64,000 bases of DNA, taken from NCBI GenBank assembly GCA_041641305.1, contig JBEPYN010000002.1:448001-512000 (forward strand), read 5' to 3'. Positions 1 to 19,302 of this stretch are shown piece after piece. The position numbers and the translations under genes were made by a program. The notes beneath the pieces were generated by a model that worked only from the letters and a program-made list of their open reading frames with translations, had not been told where the DNA came from and did not search any database. Position 1 is the stretch's first letter; every line of letters starts with the position of its first letter. Source of the stretch: Nitrososphaerota archaeon. Lineage in GTDB: Archaea > Thermoproteota > Nitrososphaeria_A > Caldarchaeales > Caldarchaeaceae.

Positions 1-659
1 GCGACATCGTCAAGACTGCAGGGCTTTGCCTCCCCAGCGCTGCAAGCTATCAGGCCTATGGCCGGTATGTAGGGGCCGGCGGCTGCGAAGGCCAAAGACG
101 CCGCCAGAAGCCAGCCGCCTATACCCTTCAGCTTCCCACCGGGAACCGCTAAAAGCGCCACACCTATCGGCGCAAGGGCGACCGCTAAGCTTCCGAAAAC
201 GGTCAGGAACACCATCAGAGTGAAGCCTGTGATTAACGTGACAGAGAGCGCGAGCCCCGGCAGAGAGGCGATTACGCTAAAGATGTTGGCTATCGCCGGC
301 CCCACTATAGGTATCAGAGCAGTACCCATTCCTATGCCCGTAATGATGGCCAAAATGGTGAAAGCCTTCATACCAAGCCCCATGTATATGTCAGGTAGTG
401 AAGCACAGGGCGTCCTCTCCGCAGAAATAGCTTGGGACACCATGCCGACTATGCCGTTGAAGGAGTTAGCCGTCCCGAGGATAGCTATGAAGCCGGCTGA
501 GACGAGGGCATAGCTGATAAGCTGTCCACCCCAAGAACTTCCATGACCTCCGGGTAGGGGCAGCTTGTGTAGGGCGAGTCCAATCCCATAGCCTATGGCT
601 ATAAGCGACCAAGCAACAGCCGCCCAGGCTCCAAGCCCGGAGTATTCGCAGGCTATCAC
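1..659 (-). CDS. Multi-pass membrane protein, CedA/VirB6-like (3' end outside window)
   Basis: Manual translation from GTG 659 (RBS GAGGTGG upstream) is open to the window edge: MIACEYSGLGAWAAVAWSLIAIGYGIGLALHKLPLPGGHGSSWGGQLISYAL..., many TM segments. The LPLP..WG..LI pattern resembles the CedA N-terminus. Confidence 0.65.
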   Translation of the reverse strand, partial: MIACEYSGLGAWAAVAWSLIAIGYGIGLALHKLPLPGGHGSSWGGQLISYALVSAGFIAILGTANSFNGIVGMVSQAISAERTPCASLPDIYMGLGMKAFTILAIITGIGMGTALIPIVGPAIANIFSVIASLPGLALSVTLITGFTLMVFLTVFGSLAVALAPIGVALLAVPGGKLKGIGGWLLAASLAFAAAGPYIPAIGLIACSAGEAKPCSLDDV

Positions 660-731
660 GGATAACCACCTCTAACCATAAACCATATTTTGAAAAAATA
701 TGGAGGGGGTTGGCCCCAACATGTTCACCTA

Positions 732-1175
732 CTAGAATCGGGGCACCTCCCATGGGCTGCTCGGCTGCGGCGGCGTGGTACCAAAGCCAGCGCCTGTCGT
801 GGCCACGGTTGCGGCAAAGTAGAGCAGGTAGACGCCTAGGGCTGCCAGCCCGGCGAGTATCAGGGCGCTGTCAAGAAGCTGGCCGCCGGCGTCCTTGGTT
901 CTATGGCTCCCCGTCGGCAGGAACTTTAATGCTAGACCTGAGCCCAGCAACGCAGCCGCTATCAGGAGCAGGAGCTGCCCAAACCCTGACACCGCGCCCT
1001 GAAACGTGTTGGCTATCGCCGCAGGCCCTCCTCCTTGCCCCGTCTGTTGAGCCATTGCAGCAAGCAGCAGGTGCGCGTTGGCAGCCGCTAGGCTTATGGT
1101 CGTGGTCGCGAGCCGCAGCCTACCGCTTCTCAGCCCTTTTACGAGGTTTGACCCTTTCCGGGTGTGGTGCTTCAT
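732..1175 (-). CDS. CedA1/TedC/VirB2-like pilin precursor
   Basis: Basic leader, then two hydrophobic helices joined by LALKFLPTGSHRTKDAGGQLLDSAL, similar to CedA1-type pilins. ATG 1175 lies ~35 bp from a TATA-like element. Confidence 0.6.
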   Translation of the reverse strand: MKHHTRKGSNLVKGLRSGRLRLATTTISLAAANAHLLLAAMAQQTGQGGGPAAIANTFQGAVSGFGQLLLLIAAALLGSGLALKFLPTGSHRTKDAGGQLLDSALILAGLAALGVYLLYFAATVATTGAGFGTTPPQPSSPWEVPRF

Positions 1176-1196
1176 GGCTTTCTCGAGACCATCCTC

Positions 1197-1588
1197 AAAT
1201 ACGATAATACTTAAGCTTTGGCTGAATCTGAACACTTTTGGTCGGCCACCTAGGTCGGCCAGTTTGGTCGGCCACTCTGGTCGGCCAAAGCTTATAAAGG
1301 AGCATTTTTCATATAACCCCGTTATGGCCGCTTCTTAATATAGCTATGTTCGCATTTTTCGCACTTGGCTCTATAAGCCTTTTATCACCATTTCTTTACT
1401 TTTTAATACTTTTTCAGGAATTTTTTGGTTATCTGGTATTTTTTTGTGTGCAAATTACCTTCCGCATTATTGATAAGCTTATCGGTATGGTTTTTCATGT
1501 TGGTCGGCCACATACTGTATATATTTTTGCTGGTCGGCCAGTTTGGTCGGCCACTCTGGTCGGCCAAAGCTTAAGTATTATCGTGTTT
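1197..1588. promoter_or_regulatory. Divergent control region: 26-bp inverted repeat containing BRE/TATA-like elements plus 8 operator/iteron-like boxes
   Basis: AAATACGATAATACTTAAGCTTTGGC (1197-1222) versus GCCAAAGCTTAAGTATTATCGTGTTT (1563-1588), one mismatch. AT-rich core between the repeat clusters. Confidence 0.7.
1239..1566 (+). repeat. Eight (T/A)GGTCGGCCA boxes, mostly at a 13-bp period
   Basis: Copies start at 1239, 1252, 1265, 1278 and 1501, 1531, 1544, 1557. The box is an imperfect palindrome (TGGYCGRCCA). Confidence 0.95.
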
Positions 1589-1589
1589 T

Positions 1590-2545
1590 AGGGTTGTTGA
1601 ATCCATGCGAGATTCGATGAAGCCTGCGGCTGGCTGAGCCGGGATGGGGCGTCAGCGGAGCGCTCCGACGACGGGGTCCGGCAGGTACCCCGTCGCCCGA
1701 GGGCTGGGCGCCGGCATGCCTGGCCCAAGGTCCCAGGCATTCGCATGGATGAATGCCGAAGCCGGCGATGGATAGGTGGTCCGTGACGGAGAGGGGCTCC
1801 CCGGAGGGTGAGAAAGCCACGCACCACACCCGGAAACCCCGCCCAGGGAACCCCGTAGAATAAACCATCAAGCCCCCATATATTGTTTACCGGGGGTCTC
1901 GGGTGGGGTATATGATGGGTGTCCCGTGAGCGGTCGGGGTCAGGGCCCGGGGTCATCCCGGGTGAGGCTGGATGGTCCAGCAGCCTGCGACGGGTAGCCT
2001 CGGGAGCTTGGCGTGGTCCACCAGAGTATATCCGGGGGATTGTGGGATGATGGCTGGGGCTGGCTCGGCTGCCCAAGGGGGCTGGGCAGGGCTTGGATGG
2101 TTCATCCAAGTGGGTGCTACCCCGCCGGAGCTGGTGCAGCCGGCTGGTGTCCATCCCTTGGACGGTTTATCCAAGGGGGTGACGCCGGCCCAACCCAGAG
2201 CCATTAGAATCACTAGAATGTCCTCTCCGTCTTCTCTGGGCTTCCGCGTCCGGGTTGAAGCCGCCCGCCCAGAAGCCGCTACAGATAACAGCCCCACACG
2301 GACCGGGGTGCGGCGAAGAGGCGGCTAAAGACCCGGGACAAGGGGGAGAACGGTTGGCTGATTCTCCCCGCCATCCCGGAGCCCACACCCGGGAAACTCT
2401 TCCCGGCAACGCCCGTTCACGCGGGCGGGGGGCTCAACAACACAATGCCCCCCGAAGATGCCAGGGAAACTCCGGAGGTGGGCTCTCCGGAATTGTCGTC
2501 CGGCGGGGGGAGACGCCCTCGATGGCCCGTCGGGGTTGCGAGGTG
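1590..2545 (+). ncRNA. Candidate long structured non-coding RNA or leader
   Basis: Starts just downstream of the TATA-like element at 1570-1577. Very GC-rich with nested stems (1601-1610/1741-1750, 1669-1677/1687-1695, 1716-1723/1733-1740, 2092-2110, 2155-2177, several in 2270-2535). No convincing ORF. Confidence 0.45.
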
Positions 2546-2561
2546 AAAGAGAAATGAAGAC

Positions 2562-2813
2562 ATGATGATTCTTTTGCTTGACGGCGGCTCTATCAGTGCA
2601 TCGATAGCAAGCGCTATAAGAGATGTGATTCTGTTGATTTTCGACATCCTGACCCCGATAATCAATATAATCGGGGTCGGCATGATTGCAATAGGGCTCC
2701 TGCTGGGGCTCGGACTCCGGCAGGAGTTCCTCGGCTTCCGATTAGCTATCGGCGGAGCGCTGGCTCTTCTAACTGTCCATGTTCTAGTGCCATTTTTATT
2801 GTCATTCATCTGA
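2562..2813 (+). CDS. Small hydrophobic pilin-like (VirB2/TrbC-like) membrane protein
   Basis: 83 aa, two to three hydrophobic helices, GAGGTGA upstream. Confidence 0.65.
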   Translation: MMILLLDGGSISASIASAIRDVILLIFDILTPIINIIGVGMIAIGLLLGLGLRQEFLGFRLAIGGALALLTVHVLVPFLLSFI

Positions 2814-2997
2814 CTTCTCTGACCTCTTAGCGACCCAAACTCCCCTCCTTTTTTTCCGTGGAGGCTTTCTCCCCCCTTTCGTATTGTCTGTTAGTGTCCG
2901 CCCTCGCGGGCGGAGCCTCCGGTCCCCGAGTCCGGGAGGCTTCCGCCCTTGTGGGGGAGAGGGGCGGAGAAGCCTCCCGGCGGGAGGGGTGAAAGAC

Positions 2998-3135
2998 ATG
3001 AGTGACTTCCAGAAGGTGTGGGGAAGCGAGGACAGCTTCTTAACCTACCAAGCCAAAACTCGGAGGTCATACCTCCGAGTCCGGGCTAGTAGGTGGGAGG
3101 AGCTCGTCCTCCATCTCCAGAACCAGCTCTTTTGA
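2998..3135 (+). CDS. Small hypothetical protein (45 aa)
   Basis: GGGGTGA RBS then ATG 2998; followed by a C-rich/T-run terminator-like tract. Confidence 0.5.
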   Translation: MSDFQKVWGSEDSFLTYQAKTRRSYLRVRASRWEELVLHLQNQLF

Positions 3136-3273
3136 CTGGCTGTGACAGCGCCAGCCAGCCAAAACACCCCTTCTTTTTTTCCTTCATATGCCCATACGCC
3201 TGAAACATGGCGTCCACCCCATAATCATTAAATGGGGTGGCGGGGGTGGTTGGCTGGCTCGCGCCTGGCTCCA

Positions 3274-3557
3274 TGCCCGTGTGCTGGGGCTGCATAGGCC
3301 TTGCCCGTGAGCGGGTCTATGCATCCTGCGCCCTATACACCGGCCACCCCCGCAGGGTCTTGCCCGTGTGCGGGCCCTGTGGTGAGCTTGCCCGTGAGCG
3401 GCTCCGGTGTGTGGGGGGCCTGCTTGCCCGTGTGCGGCGGCTGTCTGCAGGCAGGCGCTTGAGGCGGGTGACAGGGATGTCTCCTGCACCATGTGTTTGC
3501 CGGACTTGCCCGTGAGCGGTCGGCATACATGTGGGGAGCCTTCCTGCCCGTGCGCGG
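3274..3557 (+). repeat. Seven TGCCCGTG(A/T/C)GC(G/T)G direct repeats, irregular spacing
   Basis: Copies at 3274, 3302, 3361, 3389, 3425, 3507, 3545. Confidence 0.9.
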
Positions 3558-4199
3558 TTGGCTCCAGCGGGAGACACCCAAGCAGACGACATACAGACGA
3601 TGTTCAGAGGTTGTTCAGATGCTCCGCCAAGGAAGCTCTCGGAGCCATCTTATCCATGGGAGAGGCATGGTGTCTCTTCCATGGGCTTACTCTATCAAGG
3701 CGCCGTGGGGGTGCTTTGATGGAGAGGCTCCTAGCCCTGTTGGCGGAGACAGGTGACGAATAATGCTTCCGAATATTTCTGACGACATCCCCGAAGATTG
3801 ACACTGGTTCCATGGATTAAGCAGCCGATTCAACAATACCTAGGAGATACAGAGGTTCAAGGTATTCTGATAAGCAGTCGGATGACTCTAGATAACTACA
3901 ATGGTCTCAACAGGTCTCTAATAAACGCCGACAAAAACAGGTCAAAGACTATCAACGATACTTAGCACCTCCCTCGGCGGGCCAACCCCGGGAACAGGGG
4001 CTGGGAGGATGCGGAGACTCTCCCGGGCCGCATAGGCCCGCCTCCCCACAAAAACACGGGGAGGGAAGATGACCCTCCAAATCCTCCAAAAAATCCCCTG
4101 GCTCCCGGGGGTAAGGTCTGGATGGCGACCAGGGACTCCGCGGATGGGCGGGTCCGACCCGTCCGTGGAAACACTGCCCATCGGCCATATGGTGTGGGG

Positions 4200-4466
4200 G
4201 TGCAGAAGAAGTTGACAAGTAGTCTGCTGGTACCCGGATTGATAGCTCTGGCATTGGTCTATGGGATACAGTTGGTCAACGAGGGGCATCTGTTCGAAGG
4301 TGTTCTGTTGATGGTTGTAGGTATCTTTGGCGGAGTGTATGCTGAATACCTTCTGCAGAGATGGCGCATGAGTTACTGTGACTACTGCGGGGGCAAGATG
4401 AGGAAAGATGTCGGCGGACTATACTACTGCGACAGATGCAGACGCTTCGCTCCTCGACGGGCCTAA
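4200..4466 (+). CDS. Two-TM membrane protein with C-terminal Zn ribbon
   Basis: GTG 4200; two TM helices; CDYC...CDRC. Confidence 0.7.
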   Translation: MQKKLTSSLLVPGLIALALVYGIQLVNEGHLFEGVLLMVVGIFGGVYAEYLLQRWRMSYCDYCGGKMRKDVGGLYYCDRCRRFAPRRA

Positions 4467-4480
4467 GAGGGCGTGCAGGC

Positions 4481-5944
4481 ATGTGGGCTAGAGTTTTTGT
4501 GACACTGATAATCATCTTTGGCTTCGTAGGGTACGCTTGGTATGCAGCCATGTTAGCCTCTCAGAGATTGTTTGAACGTGGAATCATCAAAGAATCACCT
4601 ATGCCAACAATAGATGTCAAAACAATAACAACACAGGTGGCTCAGTACACAGGCATCGCTGTAACCCTGCTAATGATAGCCATTGTGGTAAAGAGGGTCG
4701 TTGAATCGGGTAGACTTCTGGGCGTCATTAAAGTCTCCGACCTTCAGAGGCATCTACTACTGCTTGGACCAACCGGTAGCGGCAAAACAAACACTGCTAA
4801 ACAGGCGATTGCCTTAGCCGTACGTCGTGGTGTCAGGGTAATCGTCATCGACTGGAAAGCCCTCTTCTCTCCGCCAGCGTTTTTCACGTCTCCCCAGCTC
4901 AGTTCCGCCGCATAGGGTTCGCGTGGAGCTTCTGGCGGAGCTGGGAGGGCCCAGAAAGGCGAGTACGTTAACTTCATCAAGGGAGCCTCCGTCGTCAGGA
5001 AACTCAACGTGTGGGACAACGGTGGTAGGTCGCCGAAGGAATGCGCTGTCCTCGCTGTCGAGACATTGAGAGAAATTACACGCGATATCGCAGATGTTTC
5101 ATCCGCCAGCGCAGCCCTTCTCCTGAGGGAGCTTGTAAAGCTCTACGGGAGAGGGGTGCCGAAGACATCCGACGTAGTTTCAGCTCTTGAGAAGTTCATA
5201 AACACCGCAATGGCGGAGCGGAGACTTGCCGAGGCGAATATGGCTTCTGCATTGCTTAGAAGGATGATGTGGCTCCAGATAGACGAGGAGAGGCCTGCGA
5301 AGAACATCATAGGCTCTGACAGGGTTGTTGTCTACGACTTATCAGAGCTCGGAAGCGTCTACCTGAAAACCATCTACAGCCTCAGCATCCTTTCAAAGAC
5401 CTACTACGGGGCCCTTAGACAGGGACAGTCCCAGAAACTAGAGACGCTGGTGATTGCAGAAGAGTGCCAAAACTACATACGTGGTAGGCGTTTCGACGAG
5501 CCTCCGTCGATTGGTGAGAGAATGGCTAACGAGCTGAGGGCCTACGGCGTCGGCATGGTCCTGATAAGCCCGGACCCTGTCCAGATACCCTGGCACCTCG
5601 CCAGAGACGTTGCAGCAGTAATATCCATAGGACTTCAGGCGATACCCGACAGCGTCAAGGACCTGTTGAGAACAATTGACCCCAAACAGGCGAAGAGAGT
5701 AATGATGGGTAAGAAGGCCTACGTCTATTACAACGGCAAACTGAAGACAGCCTCTCCGCCCAAGCCTCCAAAAGAAATAGAACTAAACGTTGACGTAAAA
5801 GAGGTGATTGAAGAGACTAAGCCTGAGGAGACTGTCGAGACTACTGCTACACAACCAGACAACTCTGGGGCAGAGGAGAGTGTTCAGACAATGCCGATAG
5901 AGCAGAAGGAGCCTTTGGAGGAGGCCCAGAGAGGCGTGAATTGA
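4481..5944 (+). CDS. Membrane-anchored HerA/VirB4/CedB-like ATPase, spliced join(4481..4857,4957..5944), 454 aa
   Basis: Two N-terminal TMs, Walker A GPTGSGKT, IDWKGEY restored by splicing, Walker B LVIAEECQN, ELRAYGVGM motif. Confidence 0.85.
4858..4956 (+). other. 99-nt archaeal-type pre-mRNA intron (bulge-helix-loop) in the ATPase gene
   Basis: Central helix CTGG 4852-55/CCAG 4951-54; AAA at 4856-58 and 4955-57; inner stems GCCCTCTT/GGGAGGGC and CTCCGCCAG/CTGGCGGAG; in-frame TAG at 4913-15. Confidence 0.85.
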
Positions 5945-5990
5945 TAGAGAGCCGGGGAAACCTCCTCTAAGGCTTGAAGAAGATGAAGAG

Positions 5991-6755
5991 ATGGTCGATG
6001 AAGACGAAGAGCAGGTGACAGAGGCCCCGCATGGGCGCATACCCCCACGGGAGGGAGTCCCGCCAAGATGATGTGGTGGTTGTGAGCGCCCCGGGAAAGC
6101 CGAACCACAGACACAACAAGAAAAAGCAGAAGAGGAGCAGGCAGATGAAACCACTGGTGGATTCCCCCTCCACGGCCACATGGTCGTGGAGGAGGCTTTC
6201 GCTGACGAGTCGGTTCTACGATGTGTTAGATGTGGGGCTTCGGCCTCGCTGACAGAGGCTACACAACTCATGGAGAAGCCTTGCCAAGAACCTCGAATGA
6301 CGCAGGATAACCTTCAGACCCGGTGCGGATGTGGACGGCCGGCGACAAAGCTTATGCCGTCATACGACCCGATAACCATGACGTTTAAAGACCTCTGCCT
6401 GTGCGACGGCTGTGCCAACGACTACCTCAACATCCTCAGGAGGTCAGGCCCAGCCCTAGGCAAGATGAGGGGGAGAATACCTGCGAACGGCTATTGGTTC
6501 AACCTTTACAACACCGTCTTCCAGGAGCTGGCTGGGACATACCCGTGCCCAGCCTGCGACCAGTTCTTCGACGACCTGTATTCCGCGGTCAAACACTTCG
6601 GCGAAAAACACATCGACAAGACAAAGACTCCAGAGGAGGTTGTCATAGACGGGGTTCCCGCCCTTAGGACATGGCAATACATATGGTGTACAAAATGTCT
6701 GAGGTTCTTCGAGAACGAGCGACATTTCCGTTCACATCTCCGAGACCATAGGTGA
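5991..6755 (+). CDS. Multi-Zn-finger protein with acidic N-terminus, spliced join(5991..6031,6098..6755), 232 aa
   Basis: One frame interrupted by a single TGA inside a BHB-bounded insert. CxxC motifs and C2H2-like fingers (CPAC...HFGEKH, CTKC...HLRDH). Confidence 0.75.
6032..6097 (+). other. 66-nt canonical BHB pre-mRNA intron
   Basis: Outer GGC 6023-25/GCC 6099-6101; central CCCG/CGGG; bulges CAT 6030-32 and AAA 6096-98; inner GGGCGC/GCGCCC; in-frame TGA at 6069-71. Confidence 0.8.
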
Positions 6756-7120
6756 AGCAGATGAAGTTCAGGGGAAAAATTTACAGGGATGGGGGAAGGC
6801 TGAAGCTGGTCTTTGACAAGCCCCTCCCGCGTGGGAGGGTGACGCTGCTGCTGACGAGGGTGGACGGAAAGGCTATGGAGTTGAAGTTCGATACAATGAT
6901 AACCAACAACGACCCCTATCGATTAAAGTGTCGGTTGCCACCGTTCCCGGAGCTGAGGCCCGGGGCGGTGGTCGAAGGAATAATCGAAGACGAGCTTAGA
7001 TGCCGCTGGTGCGGAGCCAAGTGCTCCGCACTCATCAACAACCTCTGCGACCATTGTTTCGAGGTATTCAACAGCCCCTACAAACCCCCTCTGGGAGAGG
7101 GTTGGGGAAGGCTGACGTAG
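6752..7120 (+). CDS. Hypothetical protein with C-terminal Zn finger
   Basis: GTGA overlap with the upstream stop; CRWC...CDHC. Confidence 0.7.
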   Translation: MKQMKFRGKIYRDGGRLKLVFDKPLPRGRVTLLLTRVDGKAMELKFDTMITNNDPYRLKCRLPPFPELRPGAVVEGIIEDELRCRWCGAKCSALINNLCDHCFEVFNSPYKPPLGEGWGRLT

Positions 7121-7285
7121 ACCACCGGCCAAAAACCCCAACCTCCGGGCGGTGACCCGGGGTAAAACCCGGGCGCCCCCGGCTATTTTTTCCAAGGGGC
7201 GTGTCCCGTCGGGAGCTTTCCCGGCGGGGCATGCGCCCCCTTGGCCGGGAGGCTCCCTAAGAGGGCCGCTCCGGAGGTCTAAAAA

Positions 7286-8221
7286 ATGGGCAACAACGAG
7301 AAGTGGACTCTGCCGGTGGTCTATGGAAACCGGAGGGTTCGTAGGGAGCTCATCGAGGTGCTGATGACTGTTGAAGAGTACAACGGATACACGGTGCTTT
7401 ACCTATGGTTCCACTTCCCCTACGACTGGTTTACAGCGCTAAAACCCTATGACTGGGAGCCTGTTGCAATAGCGTTCAAAGACAGCCGACCCGCCAGAAT
7501 CTTCTGGAGACCTCACTGGGCGCTTAGATGCACACGGCCTGTACTTGTGGATAAGAAGACTGTTGTCTTCTACATAAGCCCCATCAAGGGAAACGCTCCG
7601 AGATGCTCCCACTTCGATGTACTGCGGTCCATACTGGAAGACCCGTCGACCTACGGAATACCTTATCGAAAGTTCAAAGAGCTACCGCTGAAAAGCCTTC
7701 TGAAGGATGGGTGGCCGCCCGAGCACGAAGCCCGCGCCGAAAGCTTCAGAGAATACGTTCACCGAGGCCTTGAAGACATAAAAAGATGCGGGGGCGTATA
7801 CAGCGTGGTAATGGGCTTCTTCACAGACCTCCTCAGGGCCTACCTTATGGCTAGGAGGAGAAACCTCGACGGCTTCTACTATTATCTTAAGACGGCATGG
7901 GAAAACACCACAGAGAGGTTCAGGAGGAGCGGACCCGGCTACGAGATGTACAACCTACTCGTCGCCGTCAAGTACCTGCTGATGCTGCAGAAAGCGACTG
8001 GTGAAGGGCCGACGGAGCGGTTCTGGCGGGACATGGAAGGCGACCCTATCCTTCCCCCAGTGGTTAGAGCGTTGACAGGCCACATCTGGTACCCCATAGG
8101 GTTGCTGATAGCAGATGGGTATACGCCAGCCCAGCCGTTCAAAGACTTCGTTGATAAAAAATGGAGACAATGGTTCAGAGACGCCCTCAAAGCCTGCAAT
8201 AAACACGCAAACGAAGCCTAA
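7286..8221 (+). CDS. Hypothetical protein (weak NPP1/Vps62-like YLWFHF..DW..DWEPV motif)
   Basis: 311-aa ORF with GGAGGT RBS; family assignment is tentative. Confidence 0.75.
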   Translation: MGNNEKWTLPVVYGNRRVRRELIEVLMTVEEYNGYTVLYLWFHFPYDWFTALKPYDWEPVAIAFKDSRPARIFWRPHWALRCTRPVLVDKKTVVFYISPIKGNAPRCSHFDVLRSILEDPSTYGIPYRKFKELPLKSLLKDGWPPEHEARAESFREYVHRGLEDIKRCGGVYSVVMGFFTDLLRAYLMARRRNLDGFYYYLKTAWENTTERFRRSGPGYEMYNLLVAVKYLLMLQKATGEGPTERFWRDMEGDPILPPVVRALTGHIWYPIGLLIADGYTPAQPFKDFVDKKWRQWFRDALKACNKHANEA

Positions 8222-8584
8222 ACCCCCCACCTTTTTTCCAAGCCACGTGGTCCCGTCTGGGGTTTTTCCCTGGGCGGGGCCATGTGGCTCCGCTCCGGGG
8301 GAGGCTCCATGATGGGTTGCGGCGTCCAACGCCCCTGTGACAGTCCCCGAGGCGTGTGAGCGCGTAGGGGATGAGGGGCGAGGGCCTGGCCGCCTCCTCC
8401 ACGTGGAGGCCGGGGTTTGACCAAGCCCCTTTCCCTCGGGCGCCATGCAGAGGGTTTGGGAGAGGTGTGGCTGAACACCGTGTTCCTATTCCCCTCATCA
8501 GGGAGGGGTGTCGGGGCACGGCTAGTAGGCCATGCTTCCCCAAATTCCTCTGCGTGGTTGTCGGAAAAAGGGGCTGGGGAGGTG

Positions 8585-8695
8585 ATGGATATGAAAAACT
8601 GGAAGAGGTGTTTAAAATGCGAAGAGTTGAACGACATAAACGCAGCATTCTGCCATTACTGCGGTAGAACGTTAGAAGACGCGGAGGAGGTCTAA
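8585..8695 (+). CDS. 36-aa Zn-ribbon protein
   Basis: GGAGGTG RBS; CLKC...CHYC. Confidence 0.65.
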   Translation: MDMKNWKRCLKCEELNDINAAFCHYCGRTLEDAEEV

Positions 8696-9001
8696 ATGTA
8701 CCTAGTGAAGCTGCACACGGACCTTCGGGTACAACGACTCGTCTCGCGACCAGTGGAGATATTCTTTGGAGACTTGGTGACGACGATACCGAAGTCGGCT
8801 ATAGTCTGCGATGCATGCAACCAACAGGTCGCAGTCACGGAGCAGGACCTGAAAAACTTAGCGATGGGGTACGCTGTTGTAGACGGGGAATTCATCCTAG
8901 AGGTCGTATGTGAGGAATGCAGACAGCGCTACTTCGACGACATCCCGGTGTTCGACACATTAGAGGATGCCGAGGAGGTCTACGAGAAGAAGGTGAGGTG
9001 A
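8696..9001 (+). CDS. Zn-finger protein (paralog of next ORF)
   Basis: CDAC...CEEC; abuts the upstream stop. Confidence 0.75.
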   Translation: MYLVKLHTDLRVQRLVSRPVEIFFGDLVTTIPKSAIVCDACNQQVAVTEQDLKNLAMGYAVVDGEFILEVVCEECRQRYFDDIPVFDTLEDAEEVYEKKVR

Positions 9002-9003
9002 AG

Positions 9004-9285
9004 ATGGAGTTCCTAGTTTCGCTATTTACTGACAAAGAGCTCTTGAAAAAACTGCTGACCCCAAAGATTGTCATTAATGATTATGGTTACACGATTGTTC
9101 CGGCTAGGCTTGAATGCAGCCACTGTGAGCAGAAACTGCCTGTGAGGGAACCGGGAGGCTTTGCCCTCTTTGACACGGAGGGGACTCTATGGGAACTACT
9201 ATGTGAAGAGTGTAAGCAACGATTCCATTCAGGAACACCGGTTTACGAAACTTTGGACCAAGCTATTCCAAAGCAGAGGTGGTGA
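9004..9285 (+). CDS. Zn-finger protein (paralog of previous ORF)
   Basis: GAGGTGA RBS; CSHC...CEEC...PVYETLD. Confidence 0.75.
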   Translation: MEFLVSLFTDKELLKKLLTPKIVINDYGYTIVPARLECSHCEQKLPVREPGGFALFDTEGTLWELLCEECKQRFHSGTPVYETLDQAIPKQRW

Positions 9286-9287
9286 AG

Positions 9288-11088
9288 ATGGTCAGGGTAG
9301 TGGAGCTTCGGGAGGAGACTGAGCTTCTAGAAAAACTCAAGAATCGCTTTCCACACACTAGTCTACGTAGATATCAGGCCGACATCGCTAATAGGGTCTA
9401 CGAGAGCCTTTCCAACGGCTCTAGCATTCTTCTGGAGGGCCCTACGGGGCTGGGGAAGAGGCTATGAGGAGACTGTTTATGGGGGGTGGTTGGCTGGCTG
9501 GCGTCTCCGAGCCTCCTATACAGCCCCTGTATGGGCCGCGGTGAGCGCCTACGCGGAGGAGAAAGGTCTGAGGGTTCTATGGCTCACCCGGACGGCGTCC
9601 CAAGTAGCTCACATCGCCAGCGAGATAGGATGCATGCCCATCTACGGCCGCCGGCTTCTCTGTATCCATGAGACGGTTAGCAAGGTTGAGCAGAGACGGT
9701 TCAACGCGGCTTGTAGAGTTGTACGACTATCCGGACGTTGCTCATACTATCCCGGAAGGCCTAGCCAAATAAAGGCGAAGACTGTTGGAGAGATTAAAGA
9801 TGCCGGTAGGAAGTCGGTCACATGTCCCTACGAGCTTCAGCTGACATCGATGCCATACTCGACGTCGCTGGTCGCCACCCATAAACAGTTGTCTGTAGTT
9901 TCCTGGCTTTTGGCAAAATGGCGTTGGACCCGCGAGCGAACCATCTTGGTGCTCGACGAGTTCCAGAACATCTTGAAGACTGTTCTCGACCTCTCAAAAG
10001 ACGCCATAAGCCTGGCAACGCTCCACAAGGCCGCCGCAGAGGCAGCAAGGTATGGCTTCAGGGATATTTCCAGCAGTCTTTCAGAAGCTTATCAAAGATA
10101 CAAGGCGGTTGACGTTGACGAGGCTGAGGTAGAAAACCTACTGCCCAGCTTCGAAGAGCTCTTCGAGGCGGGGCAGGAGATACAGGCTAGGAAACTTGAG
10201 GAGAATGTTGTACCCGCCAGCTATGTGTTGAGCGTCGCAGACTTTAAGGCTGCTCTCGGCCAGCAGAAGCCCCTCCTAGTCAGGGAGGGTGAACGGGTTT
10301 GGCTGGAGGCGCTAGCAGACCCACGCGAGGAGCTTGAAAAGATTCTCGAAGGCTGGAGAACGGTCATAGCTATGACGGCCACGATGGATGCGGAACTCGT
10401 TGAACGCATGGCTTCAACCCAAGTGACGCTGTTGCGAGCAGGGTGGCCCTTCGACGATAATCTGAAGGCATACATTGTCAGCGGCCTTACGACGAGATAC
10501 AGGGACAGGGATGTGGAGCTCTATGAAGATGTCCGATGGCTTATAGAACAATCTCATGGAATGAGGACTCTCGTCTTCCTACCCAGCTATGAATTTGCTT
10601 CAATGATTCAGAAGAGGCTTAGCGACGCTATCGCCGAGCAACGGGGGATGACGCAGGAACAGGTGGAAGCCACGGCCGCTGAATTCGCGGAGGGTGGAAA
10701 AACGCTTTTAGCCGTCTTCGGTGGAAGGCTGGCAGAGGGCATCAACCTCCAAGCCGACTTGGTTATGCTGGTGGGCATACCATTCGCGAAACCATCACCG
10801 CGAACAAAGAAGCTCGAGGACAAGCTTGAGAATGTCTTTGGGAGCAGTGACCTTTCCCGGCTACATGGACTAGTTTTACCGGCCCTCTTTGCCGCCGTGC
10901 AGGCCGCCGGTAGGGCTGTCAGAGGCCCCAATGATAGGGCTCTGGTCCTGCTCGTCGACGACAGATACCGCCGTTTGACAAAACACTTGCCCAGATGGTT
11001 CAGAGACTTGGTCTCAGATAAGCCGGTCAAGCTCACAGATGTTCCCATTCTATTGGATGAGTGGTTGTCATGGATGAAGAGCGTTTGA
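9288..11088 (+). CDS. XPD/Rad3/DinG-family Fe-S DNA helicase, spliced join(9288..9458,9520..11088), 579 aa
   Basis: Q motif RRYQ, Walker A GPTGLGKT restored by splicing, four Fe-S cysteines, LDEFQN, GRLAEGIN, QAAGRAVRG. Confidence 0.9.
9459..9519 (+). other. 61-nt canonical BHB pre-mRNA intron in the helicase Walker A motif
   Basis: Outer GGGGCTG 9446-52/CAGCCCC 9521-27; central GGGA/TCCT; bulges AGA 9457-59 and ATA 9518-20; inner GGCT/AGCC and GGAGAC/GTCTCC. The insert causes a stop and a frameshift. Confidence 0.92.
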
Positions 11089-12512
11089 GACACGTTCTTG
11101 AACGCATCCGCAGACAGAACATCAACTACGTGAAGCTCAGAGGACTTGTCAGCCGATTCATGACTCTCAACCCCGAGGCAGACCCAGAAGCAATAGATTG
11201 GACAGCCGTCTACGATGACTCCCTAAGCTACGACGAACTCGTCGAAGCATTTGAAAAAGAGTATCCCATGTACCGGTGGCGTGAGACAGCTCCCGCAGAT
11301 GACAAACAAATCGAGGACATGCTGGTGAACCATATCCTCAACCAGGTCGAGGACCTTACAGAAGAGTCTCTCAAGTCGCTCGTCAATGCCTTGGAGGAGC
11401 GGCTGGAGGCTCTACGGCAGGCCGAAACCCCGGCATCTCCGACGGAGCAACAACCCGAACATACACAGATGCAACATCCTCAGCACCAACCGCCGACTAT
11501 GACTGAAAACATACAACAGCCAGCGCCACAGCCGAAGGTAACCCTCAAGCTTCTCGCATCCTACCCCTTCCTAGCGGAGGCTAGGGAGGTGGTTAGGGGC
11601 GTGAGCTTCGAGGGTTTACCCAGGGCGGTATACAAAAGAGCCCGGGAGAGGCTAATGGAGGCTCTCGAACGGGGAGAGCTGGGGGTTGTTCCCCGGCTCG
11701 ATGAACCGTTCGTGGAGCTTCTCTCCTTTCCCGTGGCGAAGGCCGTTGTCCACACAATCGACGACGACTGGCTGAAAAGGCGATGGGCCCTCGCAGAGTC
11801 AGCGAGGGTCGAGAGGCTTCTACTGAAGGAGAATGCGGATGTCTCAGAATGGCTCCTCTCCCGGCTACTTGAGGTCAGGCGAGAGGGAGAGGAGTATGCG
11901 CTGAGGTTCACTGATTACCTAAAGCTTGCTGAAGGCCTTACCACCGATATCTCATGGAAGCTAGTAAACCAAAAACTGCATCGAGGCTGGGTCTTCATAA
12001 CAAAGACTCGTCTCATACGACTCATCAGACAAAAACTCTACCAACTTCTCTATAACAGCTTCCAGCAGACGCCCAAACTGACAAAAATACCTCAACAAAT
12101 CGCCGAAATGGTCGCCGACATAACCGAGGAGCTCCAAAAAATCAAAGCCCGGGCAGGACGGGTCACACCCGTCAAAGGCGCAATACCGCCCTGTATGAAG
12201 ACGATTAGCGATAGGCTGGCGGACGCCAGCCACACAGAGAACTTCGTATACGCCGCCTACTTGGTCAATACGGGATACAGCATCGAGGAAATCGTTGATG
12301 TCTTTAGGAAGAGAGCTGACTTCGACGAGAGGATAGCACGGTATCAGATAGAGCATATAGCGGGGCTGAGGGGGAGCCGTGTGAAATACCGGCCACCTTC
12401 ATGCTCCCGCATGCGGGAACTCGGACTATGCATCGAGAACGGAAGACTATGCCCACCGAATATCCACAACCCACTACAATACCGACCTAGACAACAGCGA
12501 CAACCCACCTAA
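11070..12512 (+). CDS. DNA primase large subunit (PriL)-like protein with ~150-aa N-terminal extension
   Basis: LASYPFL, W.LVNQ.L..GWV, and an Fe-S C-terminus PPCM...DFDERIARYQIEHIAG...YRPPSC...GLC...C...NPL. Confidence 0.85.
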   Translation: MDEERLRHVLERIRRQNINYVKLRGLVSRFMTLNPEADPEAIDWTAVYDDSLSYDELVEAFEKEYPMYRWRETAPADDKQIEDMLVNHILNQVEDLTEESLKSLVNALEERLEALRQAETPASPTEQQPEHTQMQHPQHQPPTMTENIQQPAPQPKVTLKLLASYPFLAEAREVVRGVSFEGLPRAVYKRARERLMEALERGELGVVPRLDEPFVELLSFPVAKAVVHTIDDDWLKRRWALAESARVERLLLKENADVSEWLLSRLLEVRREGEEYALRFTDYLKLAEGLTTDISWKLVNQKLHRGWVFITKTRLIRLIRQKLYQLLYNSFQQTPKLTKIPQQIAEMVADITEELQKIKARAGRVTPVKGAIPPCMKTISDRLADASHTENFVYAAYLVNTGYSIEEIVDVFRKRADFDERIARYQIEHIAGLRGSRVKYRPPSCSRMRELGLCIENGRLCPPNIHNPLQYRPRQQRQPT

Positions 12513-12667
12513 ACACCCCCTATTTTTTCTTTCCCCGATAGGAGGCCCTTTCCGCCGCTCTCCGGCGGGAGGGGTTCCTCCTGTCGGGGAGAGGTGGACT
12601 CAGGCCTCCCGGGAAAGCCATGACATTAAGTCATGGTACCGGACCCGGCCACCGGGGTAAAGGTGGC

Positions 12668-13066
12668 ATGGACTCGTCTCCCGAGAGGCTGTTTGATGAC
12701 TCGGGAGCGCCCGCGGTTCCAAGGCCCGCCGCGGGCGACAAGTGCCAGGGCCTGAGTTCGGGGGGTGGTTCGACTTATGAGCGTCTGCTGGAGCGCTACG
12801 GCGGCTTCTTCGAGGAGCTTGGCTATGGTTGTCTCGCCAGCTTTAAGCATCTGATTGAGCAAGTGGAGGTGACTATCGATACGGCGACATCTAATGATGT
12901 CAACCTGTTTGCTAAGCTCCATGTGCTAAAGTCTGCGAGGGCCTCGGTAGAAGTATTTACGGAGTATTATAGTCGATTCCTGCCACCTACTGTCGTCAAT
13001 AACCTGCGAGCTGACCTGACATTTCTGCTTGAGCGTGCTGAGGAGGTGGTGTTGACTTTTGGCTGA
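12668..13066 (+). CDS. Hypothetical protein
   Basis: AGGTGG RBS, ATG 12668; overlaps the MTase start. Confidence 0.65.
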   Translation: MDSSPERLFDDSGAPAVPRPAAGDKCQGLSSGGGSTYERLLERYGGFFEELGYGCLASFKHLIEQVEVTIDTATSNDVNLFAKLHVLKSARASVEVFTEYYSRFLPPTVVNNLRADLTFLLERAEEVVLTFG

Positions 13067-13970
13067 ATTCATAGACCCCACCATTCTGAAAGGGTGGTGG
13101 GGTTCCGAGGAATACCAGAGGCTGTTATCCTTCGAGCCGGAAAATGCAGGTGACTACTATCGGTTACCATTCGCCAAATACAACGAGCTCTTTCCGTTCA
13201 TCAAAGTCAAGATTGAGCACCCTGCAGTGATGAACCCATACTTGGCGATTTTCCTTTGGCGGCGTTACGTAAAACCAAATGATGTAATAATCGACCCTAT
13301 GGCTGGGATAGGGGGTACACCCGATATGTAGGGGCCCAGCTTTATCCCAGCCATAGCCTGCAGATTGACCAATGATAACCACTTAATCCTCAACGATATT
13401 GAGTCGACTTACGCCAGACTCTCTGAGGAGCTTCTTTCGGAGATGCTGGTCGTTACTAATCACAGCACCCTGCTGGACGTCTACAACGTAAACGCTGCCT
13501 CTCTTTATGAACTTCTTAGACCAAGAGGACTTGCTGGAGGCGTACGGAGGAGGGTTATTATTACCTCTCCTCCGTATGGCCTCCTCAGGCCCTGTGATAG
13601 CTTCAGCCCGAGGTTTGGCAGACTGACGGTAACTTCCGCCGGTAACCTTAGCGTGATAACCGGTAAACACTTTAGGGCGGCTTGGCTGGGCGTGCTGACT
13701 TCGATGTATCTCTGTCTCAACCAGTTCCATAGAAACCGTGACTTGGCTGTGATTGTCCTCAAAAACTTCAAGAATAACAATGTGGAAAAGGCTGTTGGAA
13801 AAAACCTCGTCAATTTAACGGTTGAACTCGCGGAGTTCGTTGGATTCAAACATCTCGAGACGCTGAAGTTCAAGATTTCAGGCAGCCACTTCGCCAGATA
13901 CCACGACATCAAGCAACATGTCCATGACCTCTGGCACGAATATGCGCTGGTCTTCCGCAAGGTGGTGTAG
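13059..13970 (+). CDS. Amino (N4-C/N6-A) DNA methyltransferase, spliced join(13059..13318,13340..13970), 296 aa
   Basis: HPA motif, SAM-binding IIDPMAGIGGT, catalytic IITSPPY. Both ORF halves are in one frame, separated by a TAG inside a BHB insert. Confidence 0.85.
13319..13339 (+). other. 21-nt canonical BHB pre-mRNA intron next to the SAM-binding motif
   Basis: 16-bp outer helix CTATGGCTGGGATAGG/TTTATCCCAGCCATAG; central GGGT/GCCC; bulges ACA 13317-19 and AGC 13338-40; inner CCC/GGG; in-frame TAG at 13329-31. Confidence 0.9.
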
Positions 13971-14819
13971 ATGAGGATTTTCGCTGATGTTCATAGGAAA
14001 AAGGATGACAGCGGCTACCGCATCACATATACAACTGACGGCGAAGTCTTTAAACACGTTGATTCTCCGATGGACATCCCCGCGCAGGCAGGAGACGAGG
14101 TATTCGTTGACACTATACCGATAATCCACACCGACGCATTCATAGAGCTACTGAGGAGAGGTGTAGAGGTCTATTATCTACGAAGACTCTCACTTATTGA
14201 AAAGACAAGACAGAGACTGGGGATACCGAAGTCAGCCAAAAATGACGTAAAAATTCTGATGAACATTGAGAAGAAATGGTTCAAGAGAGTTGACGAGGAC
14301 TTCTTGAGCATGCGTCAGATTATTTCGGCGTTTAGGAGATTGGATAGAGACAAACAGAGGTTGGAGAACCAGTCTAAGGACGTGCCGGAGATTACAAAGG
14401 AAAGCTTCAGGAGGCTCATAGACCATACAGAGGAGGAGAAGTTGGTAATAGCCAAACCAATAGTAGAAGAAGCAGAGAAGAGGCTTTCGTTATTTAGAGT
14501 AGTAGCGCAGGAGCTGGGTGTTGCAGACGATAATCATTCGATGGGAAGAGAGGCACTGGCCGAACTACTGACATACGTAGACTTCAGCAAATCCTTCAGA
14601 AAAGTCAGAGAGTATCTCGGACTCTTCAGAAACCCGAAGACCAAAAACATGAGATACAGCCACAGTTCTAGGAAGGCGTTGAACCGTCTAACAATGTCGC
14701 TGACGGGCAGAGAGCCAAAAGCAGAAGACGAGGAAACAATAGCTTTCAAGATATGGCTGACGTTCCGACGGGAAAACCAAAAGAGGCTGGCGGGCATACC
14801 GGCCCAACAACAGGGATAA
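13971..14819 (+). CDS. IS110-related RuvC + coiled-coil + Nop-like protein (TasR-like)
   Basis: IFADVH, VFVDT and KSAKNDV resemble the IS110 RuvC acidic motifs. F.KSFRKVREYLGL...RYSHSSRKAL resembles the IS110/Nop C-terminal domain but lacks the (Q/S)SG serine loop. Confidence 0.7.
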   Translation: MRIFADVHRKKDDSGYRITYTTDGEVFKHVDSPMDIPAQAGDEVFVDTIPIIHTDAFIELLRRGVEVYYLRRLSLIEKTRQRLGIPKSAKNDVKILMNIEKKWFKRVDEDFLSMRQIISAFRRLDRDKQRLENQSKDVPEITKESFRRLIDHTEEEKLVIAKPIVEEAEKRLSLFRVVAQELGVADDNHSMGREALAELLTYVDFSKSFRKVREYLGLFRNPKTKNMRYSHSSRKALNRLTMSLTGREPKAEDEETIAFKIWLTFRRENQKRLAGIPAQQQG

Positions 14820-14910
14820 AACCCATAGGCCGGTATGTCATGTTATAAAACGAACTGGCTCTCTTGCCAGTTATGTCCCAACCTTTAACGACCGGCCTCT
14901 TTTTGGGTTT
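14819..14910 (+). ncRNA. Candidate dual-guide RNA (tigRNA/bridge-like)
   Basis: Stem AGGCCGGT/ACCGGCCT, apical stem AACTGGC/GCCAGTT, and a symmetric internal loop with two copies of ATGTC-N9-AACG; outer AAACCCA/TGGGTTT. Confidence 0.65.
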
Positions 14911-14948
14911 CCTAGGTGTTGTTTGGTGGTTGCCTGCCAGCCAACCAT

Positions 14949-14990
14949 CCCCCTATTTTTCCCTTCTTTTTGTGATGTTTTTTGTTTATA
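14949..14990 (+). terminator. Archaeal oligo-T terminator-like tract at the element end
   Basis: CCCCCTATTTTT followed by further T runs; similar tracts at 2843-2855, 3165-3180, 7185-7191, 8223-8237 and 12514-12528. Confidence 0.55.
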
Positions 14991-15017
14991 TCATGGGTGT
15001 GGGGTGTTTTCGGGGGT

Positions 15018-15460: not shown

Positions 15461-15490
15461 GAGTATGTTTATAACATCATCCAACACAGC

Positions 15491-19062: not shown

Positions 19063-19143
19063 GCTCTATCTCACGCCGCATAAGCAACAATGGCTGAATT
19101 TATGCAATCGTGTTTAAATATCCTCAAACAAGAATCAAAACAT

Positions 19144-19248
19144 GGGCCCGTAGCTTAGCATGGATAGAGCGCTGGCCTCCGGAGCCAGAGGTCGTGAGCG
19201 GCGGTACGGAAGTGCCGCGCCGGCAGGGTTCAAATCCCACCGGGCCCG
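19144..19248 (+). tRNA. tRNA-Arg(CCG) with a 30-nt non-canonical intron (19197-19226) at position 51/52
   Basis: Acceptor GGGCCCG/CGGGCCC; anticodon arm CTGGC-CT-CCG-GA-GCCAG. The T arm GTGGG-TTCAAAT-CCCAC forms after cutting bulges TGA and AGG around helix GTCG/CGGC. TTTAAATA upstream. Confidence 0.93.
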
Positions 19249-19302
19249 TAAAATATGTCACTGGAGGGGTTGTGGATTTTTAACAAGCCGTGAATATAGC
19301 TT

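Follow-up and report, generated by a model that had tools for sequence, protein, structure and literature searches.

A methyltransferase gene of a hot-spring Nitrososphaerota archaeon (Caldarchaeaceae) is interrupted by a 21-nt BHB intron, which is very probably spliced by the host and needed for the full-length enzyme. The gene lies in a 64,000-nt stretch of contig JBEPYN010000002.1 (assembly GCA_041641305.1). This stretch is called the window here, and its features are listed in Table 1. Excision of 13319-13339 fused the ORFs at 13059-13331 and 13365-13970 into a 296-aa open frame that read DPMAGIGGTFIPAIA. The intron fell within the Thr codon with which SAM-binding motif I ends. The unspliced product ended at 90 aa, upstream of the catalytic SPPY. 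A strong local hairpin was also present at 13093-13116 (+), near the start of the gene.

Table 1. Features of the methyltransferase locus and of the surrounding element (positions in the window).
Feature	Position	Strand	Basis or remark
Candidate third intron, 99 nt, HerA/VirB4-like ATPase	4858-4956	+	MFE fold contains a BHB core; without the insert, two ORFs join and IDWKGEY is restored
Putative second BHB-type intron, 61 nt, Walker A of helicase (XPD/Rad3-type)	9459-9519	+	Predicted removal restores GPTGLGKTAPVW and a 529-codon frame
ORF A, function unassigned	12668-13066	+	Neighbour of the methyltransferase at the majority of homologous loci; start set by comparison with homologs
Methyltransferase exon 1 (HPA motif, motif I DPMAGIGG)	13059-13318	+	Putative TTG start, overlaps upstream ORF stop
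Exon-exon helix, 16 bp	13297-13312 with 13341-13356	+	14 Watson-Crick and 2 G-U pairs
Exon-exon helix, 5' arm	13297-13312	+	Fold, covariation
Central helix, 4 bp, GGGU/GCCC	13313-13316 with 13334-13337	+	MFE fold
Central helix 5' strand GGGU and 5' bulge ACA (13317-13319), cut after 13318	13313-13319	+	Fold, RNA contig, homologs
BHB intron, 21 nt, TAG at 13329-13331	13319-13339	+	Fold, RNA contig gap, non-sliding junction
Central helix 3' strand GCCC and 3' bulge AGC (13338-13340), cut after 13339	13334-13340	+	Fold, RNA contig, homologs
Methyltransferase exon 2 (FIPAIA, ILNDIE, TSPPY, HEYALVF)	13340-13970	+	Spliced product 296 aa
Exon-exon helix, 3' arm	13341-13356	+	Fold, covariation
IS110/Tas-like gene	13971-14819	+	Abuts methyltransferase stop; LAGLIDADG-like or other genes instead in some loci

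The MFE fold of 13297-13356 (+) was a canonical BHB of −35.1 kcal/mol (z −4.7), which none of 200 shuffles equalled. The centroid fold contained the BHB as well. A 4-bp helix lay between two 3-nt bulges, and this central helix was 98% paired among homologs. The interior of the intron formed a 3-bp stem and an 8-nt loop in the MFE fold. The geometry agreed with the published BHB definition (PMC10485636). The archaeal endonuclease places its cuts between bulge bases two and three (PMC2738675), and this rule, applied to the present BHB, predicted 13319-13339 as the intron. The junction had no microhomology and could not slide either way. The 21 nt had no 13-nt match elsewhere in the genome.

An earlier note, made from the sequence alone, had described a 16-bp exon-exon helix with two G-U pairs that closed a BHB around a 21-nt insert with an in-frame TAG, located in the SAM-binding motif. 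The MFE fold reproduced the helix and the closed insert with its TAG, and the spliced RNA contig and the comparison of homologs supported a BHB intron in that motif. The note had also called 21 nt minimal, which was not the case: inserts of 18 nt occurred in homologs, and the cbf5 intron measured 14 nt in the host and 16 nt in published cases.

The 1.66-Mb genome was scanned on both strands for BHBs with introns of 11–60 nt. At a minimum of 7 exon pairs, it gave 810 BHB-like sites. The site at 13297-13356 had the top score in the genome and was the sole one with 16 of 16 pairs; two codon-shuffled copies of the genome gave no BHB at 16 exon pairs. The next match that joined ORFs was the 14-nt BHB intron of the host cbf5 (G000 C1:76821-76834, +), whose removal restored GHGGTLDP. 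The scan recovered this intron at its known Asp codon, and it served as a positive control. The host cbf5 intron was shorter than the 16–44 nt given in PMC2738675. In the MFE fold, a BHB-like match at 12547-12580 belonged to one long plain hairpin, and it was left out of the count.

Spliced sequence was present in environmental RNA. A 141-nt contig of metatranscriptome X13 covered 13243-13403 with zero mismatches and with 21 letters absent at 13319. It omitted exactly 13319-13339, which places each cut after base two of a bulge, and the exons were joined. As the junction cannot slide, this gap equals the BHB prediction to the base. The RNA support was a single assembled contig (depth 5.6) from one run, not raw reads. 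X13 was the only run with a contig across the site, and RNA runs X20 and X24 gave no coverage there. Contigs show presence only, so they give no ratio of spliced to unspliced RNA. DNA run X9 (depth about 550), from a sample other than that of X13, retained the 21 nt with no gap. Another X13 contig of 60 nt (depth 3) joined 13272 (covering 13243-13272) to apparent ORF A sequence about 500 bases upstream, and was read as a chimera or a circular RNA.

The host genome encodes two EndA-family genes (PF01974; G000 C1:295824 and C3:39058) and one RtcB gene (PF01139), and it has intron-bearing tRNAs. By analogy with the known pathway, EndA and RtcB would act on this mRNA. The pre-mRNA would fold with its exons paired over 16 bp, which would expose the canonical BHB. 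The host EndA, with two subunits, would then cleave after 13318 and 13339, and RtcB would join the exons. Splicing would eliminate the stop and reassemble the final Thr codon of motif I, so that a 296-aa amino-methyltransferase is made. This product would serve the integrated conjugative-type element, with DNA as the most likely substrate. The intron would be kept because loss of the fold kills the gene, and regulation would be unnecessary to explain its retention. The RtcB gene (G000 C1:535991-538729, +) matched in two pieces inside a 975-codon open frame, an intein-like arrangement. A tRNA-Arg(CCG) with an intron at 19143-19249 (+) was detected on the whole genome and missed on the window alone.

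In comparison with a complete congeneric genome, most of positions 1-15000 had no counterpart beside the syntenic backbone, which resumed at 15468. Long membrane-type genes were located upstream. The missing synteny and these genes indicated an integrated element, which is probably conjugative. An attachment repeat was looked for at the nearby tRNA-Arg and was not found. The genes were ordered as helicase, primase, conserved hairpin region, ORF A, methyltransferase, and IS110/Tas-like gene. The hairpin region (12520-12665, +) contained GC-rich hairpins conserved in at least 8 related loci and is possibly an origin or a structured RNA. The IS110-like gene moves independently and takes the last bases of the methyltransferase with it. 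It is not an obligate partner, and an RNA-guided methyltransferase was set aside for this reason. At 13971-14965 (+), the IS110/Tas-like gene preceded a region that was structured and conserved, with loops that varied; several copies occurred here and in genome G009.

Further genes of the element carried candidate introns. The 61-nt insert in the helicase obeyed the cutting rule of the methyltransferase intron. At its position, L035 and L072 had inserts of 68 and 84 nt, one of them with a compensatory change. The start (G-GCT-G/A-TG) and end (GC-TCCT-AT) of the helicase intron resembled those of the 18-nt methyltransferase introns. The sequences give a weak hint that the two are of common origin. 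The ATPase probably carries a similar intron. A weaker 66-nt candidate at 6032-6097 (+) also folded as a BHB; the joining of a conserved gene could not be shown for it.

Splicing might also act as a regulated gate, a role that the earlier note had implied with the word "gating". It would then be rate-limiting or conditional, and host EndA/RtcB or temperature-dependent folding would set when, and in which hosts, the methyltransferase, helicase, and ATPase are made. Such regulation would supplement the host-spliced, required intron as the best explanation and would not replace it. Two or three enzymes encoded by one element have introns within their nucleotide-binding motifs, which agrees with it, and a negative-regulator role has been proposed for the cbf5 intron (PMC2738675). 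We nevertheless regard a gate as unlikely. The sole RNA contig across the site was spliced, and efficient processing seems likely for a canonical BHB clamped by 16 bp. The helicase was uninterrupted in the close homologs L071 and L074, and placement in essential motifs is equally expected if introns persist only where their imprecise loss is lethal. As a tentative suggestion, one family of integrated Caldarchaeales mobile elements may place tRNA-type introns in nucleotide-binding motifs of several enzymes (methyltransferase, helicase, ATPase). Such an element would function only in places and at times at which the tRNA-splicing machinery of the host acts on its mRNAs; splicing would then be a checkpoint, and the elements would be a reservoir for intron spread between genes.

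The enzyme had the motifs of a DNA amino-methyltransferase, with motif I (DPMAGIGGT) and motif IV (TSPPY). A profile built from the family together with uninterrupted relatives matched beta-class DNA amino-methyltransferases in two halves with swapped order. The matches included 2zie (E 8e-27) and the N4-cytosine methyltransferase 8s9n (E 2e-19). Compared with 2zie, 8s9n, and M.PvuII (1boo), the family was alike in HPA...DP.xG.GT and TSPPY, and its halves stood in swapped order: motif I came before motif IV here, whereas motif IV comes before motif I in the beta class. The motifs and profiles suggested that the enzyme is a circularly permuted beta-class relative and likely a DNA amino-methyltransferase. 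PADLOC matches were type II methyltransferases, and PHROG matches were phage DNA methyltransferases. Fold searches were performed with the predicted folds of the read-through form (pLDDT 71) and of P0011, an uninterrupted homolog (pLDDT 84). The nearest folds were those of the tRNA guanine-N2 methyltransferases Trm14, aTrm11, and TrmN (Z 17–18, rmsd 2.4–3.4, 173–181 aligned), with Trm14 and Trm11 ranked first. The earlier note had named a DNA methyltransferase. DNA is a likely substrate; the best HMM hits are DNA amino-methyltransferases, and the nearest folds are tRNA enzymes.

It is rather improbable that the gene has a genuine intron and yet encodes an RNA methyltransferase of the Trm11/Trm14 kind. 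The nearest solved folds pointed in this direction, as did the best weak NCBIfam matches of the uninterrupted homolog (Trm14, TIGR01177). However, the Trm folds share the motif order of I before IV and are thus favoured in a sequential alignment. Family scans found no THUMP domain, and the profile matches to DNA enzymes were far stronger (E 8e-27 vs. 2e-11). The motifs HPA, SPPY, and HEY and the position of the gene within the primase-helicase module of a mobile element also argued against RNA. DNA is retained as the probable substrate. The neighbouring genes included no recognisable restriction endonuclease. SPPY presumably points, weakly, to an N4-cytosine target.

The gap in X13 could in principle reflect an intron-less DNA allele, skipping by reverse transcriptase, or mis-assembly at the hairpin, the insert itself being unspliced. 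A single low-depth contig from a library that may contain DNA is compatible with such an artefact, but the gap follows the staggered BHB prediction to the base without a junction repeat, the insert was present in every close homolog examined, and a pattern scan of the metagenome collection that allowed 0–30 inserted bases gave one match, with the 21-nt insert. We therefore consider an artefact very improbable. Neither the metagenome pattern scan nor the 60 relatives and 400 phylum genomes searched yielded a close allele that lacks the intron.

Relatives of the gene were present in 7 of 60 related genomes. At E 1e-8, 12 of 400 phylum genomes had relatives; 10 were from the same order, and the other 2 were weak matches, one of which (L047) had an uninterrupted motif I. 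The hits were named Ca. Caldarchaeum sp., Calditenuaceae HR02, and archaeon HR01. The viral contigs searched contained no relative. Database entries of the family were N- and C-terminal pieces broken at the intron point. Fourteen homologous loci, mostly from Caldarchaeales relatives, had inserts of 18–32 nt in the same codon, and most lengths were not multiples of three. Each close homolog covering motif I carried the insert in that codon. The inserts measured 18 nt (L003, L004, L006, L062, and L063), 19 nt (L011), 20 nt (L005), 21 nt (L035 and L021), 22 nt (L008, L015, and L036), 23 nt (L002, a decayed copy), 25 nt (L012), and 32 nt (L064).

The BHB cutting rule restored the frame over the junction in the homologs, except in two decayed copies. 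Full-length open frames were obtained after splicing for L003, L004, L005, L035, L062, L063, and L064. The spliced proteins aligned without gaps to uninterrupted relatives at the junction. A fixed position, a variable interior, and a restored frame, as in BHB introns, were thus found in the homologs. Copies in G031 and G016 were truncated or had other stops with the BHB retained, so some carriers are not live genes; several N-truncated copies in G031 still contained the BHB. In one of these, a 22-nt BHB accounts for an apparent frameshift, and the copy has further damage upstream. In L034:363-1067, motif I was degenerate, the insert had shrunk, and the central helix was damaged.

A pseudogene, a nonsense mutation, or TAG read-through with seven extra codons, which the decay of some relatives and the divisibility of 21 by three might suggest, is scarcely credible, since inserts of 19, 20, 22, 25, and 32 nt shift the frame, those of 18 nt hold TAA or TAG, the intron loops vary freely, the exons are open for about 290 codons, and the synonymous sites of the helix are frozen. 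Read-through and nonsense mutation were rejected on the insert lengths of the homologs and the spliced RNA contig.

Covariation was examined in 13 aligned sequences. Of all cells, 95.4% were paired, compared with 38–47% in slid controls, and 6 of 20 pairs had changed on both sides; since the homologs are kin, these counts are not independent events. The 60-nt element was 100% identical in L021 and 95% in L035, compared with 77% and 71% for the whole gene. Third codon positions were conserved at 13/13 and 12/13 sites inside the element and at 162/280 and 131/280 sites outside it (L021 and L035, respectively). Synonymous recoding of the 14 helix residues gave a mean of 12.7 pairs and reached 16 pairs in 0.3% of trials (p = 0.003). 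At the RNA level, the helix peptide by itself comes close to self-complementarity, and the choice of codons makes the helix complete.

These results agreed with the proposal of the earlier note that protein and RNA structure constrain each other. MAGIG/FIPAI forms the helix here, and MCGVG/LIPPI and MVGVG/LIPAI are found in homologs. Selection rather than decay, as also proposed, was indicated by the compensatory changes that the note had asked to be sought in homologs, the frozen synonymous sites, and pairing above that of synonymous recoding. Homologs with the same seven codons and a sense codon in place of TAG, which the note had given as contrary evidence, were not among the loci with 18–32-nt inserts.

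P0011 was the nearest uninterrupted homolog, with 35–38% identity. It had a GGGA/UCCU pairing at the place of the intron and no exon helix. It was read as intron-less because it lacks the exon helix and excision would shift its open frame. The pairing is possibly a remnant or a precursor of the intron. The subfamily probably acquired the intron a single time, in its ancestor. The tree does not place P0011 relative to the two intron-bearing clades, so the single gain rests on the shared insert position.

The methyltransferase genes are a further family with a frame-breaking mRNA intron, with spliced sequence in environmental RNA and a location on a mobile element. Every homolog is annotated by gene callers as two separate hypothetical proteins. 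Such splitting implies that "pseudogenes" on archaeal elements may hide spliced genes. The locus is a compact example of codons and RNA structure that constrain each other at the cofactor site of an enzyme. The neighbouring introns are present or absent among elements, which makes intron gain, loss, and possible regulation directly testable.

In a 2023 review, cbf5 and HVO_1309 were the only two archaeal mRNAs given as splicing substrates of the tRNA endonuclease, and further ones were expected (PMC10485636). In the literature searched, this methyltransferase intron family was not reported, and an archaeal BHB intron inside a coding sequence was reported only for cbf5. Archaeal tRNA introns span 11–175 nt (PMC2738675). 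The tRNA and rRNA BHB introns have the same 3-4-3 geometry and size range (PMC10485636), whereas the substrate here is an mRNA whose codons also form the helix, with no homing endonuclease inside. The HVO_1309 intron of Haloferax volcanii (Schwarz 2020, PMC7714728; PMC10485636) is also an EndA substrate in an mRNA, with its spliced form in RNA-seq. It lies in the 5' UTR and breaks no frame, while the methyltransferase intron does.

The closest known system is the cbf5 intron of Crenarchaeota (Watanabe 2002; Yoshinari 2006; Yokobori 2009; PMC2738675). It is likewise short (16–44 nt) and ORF-less, and occupies one fixed codon of a key motif. It is also cut between the second and third bulge bases, has a variable interior, and occurs in hosts with two EndA subunits. 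However, the cbf5 intron splits a catalytic Asp codon of a core gene, and its motifs are mostly relaxed. The methyltransferase intron splits a SAM-binding motif in another gene family on a mobile element, has a canonical BHB with a 16-bp exon-exon clamp, and is accompanied by similar introns in further genes of the same element. It shows every testable feature of a BHB intron and resembles the cbf5 intron in mode of action. As its host gene is a methyltransferase and not cbf5, it is not a cbf5 intron.
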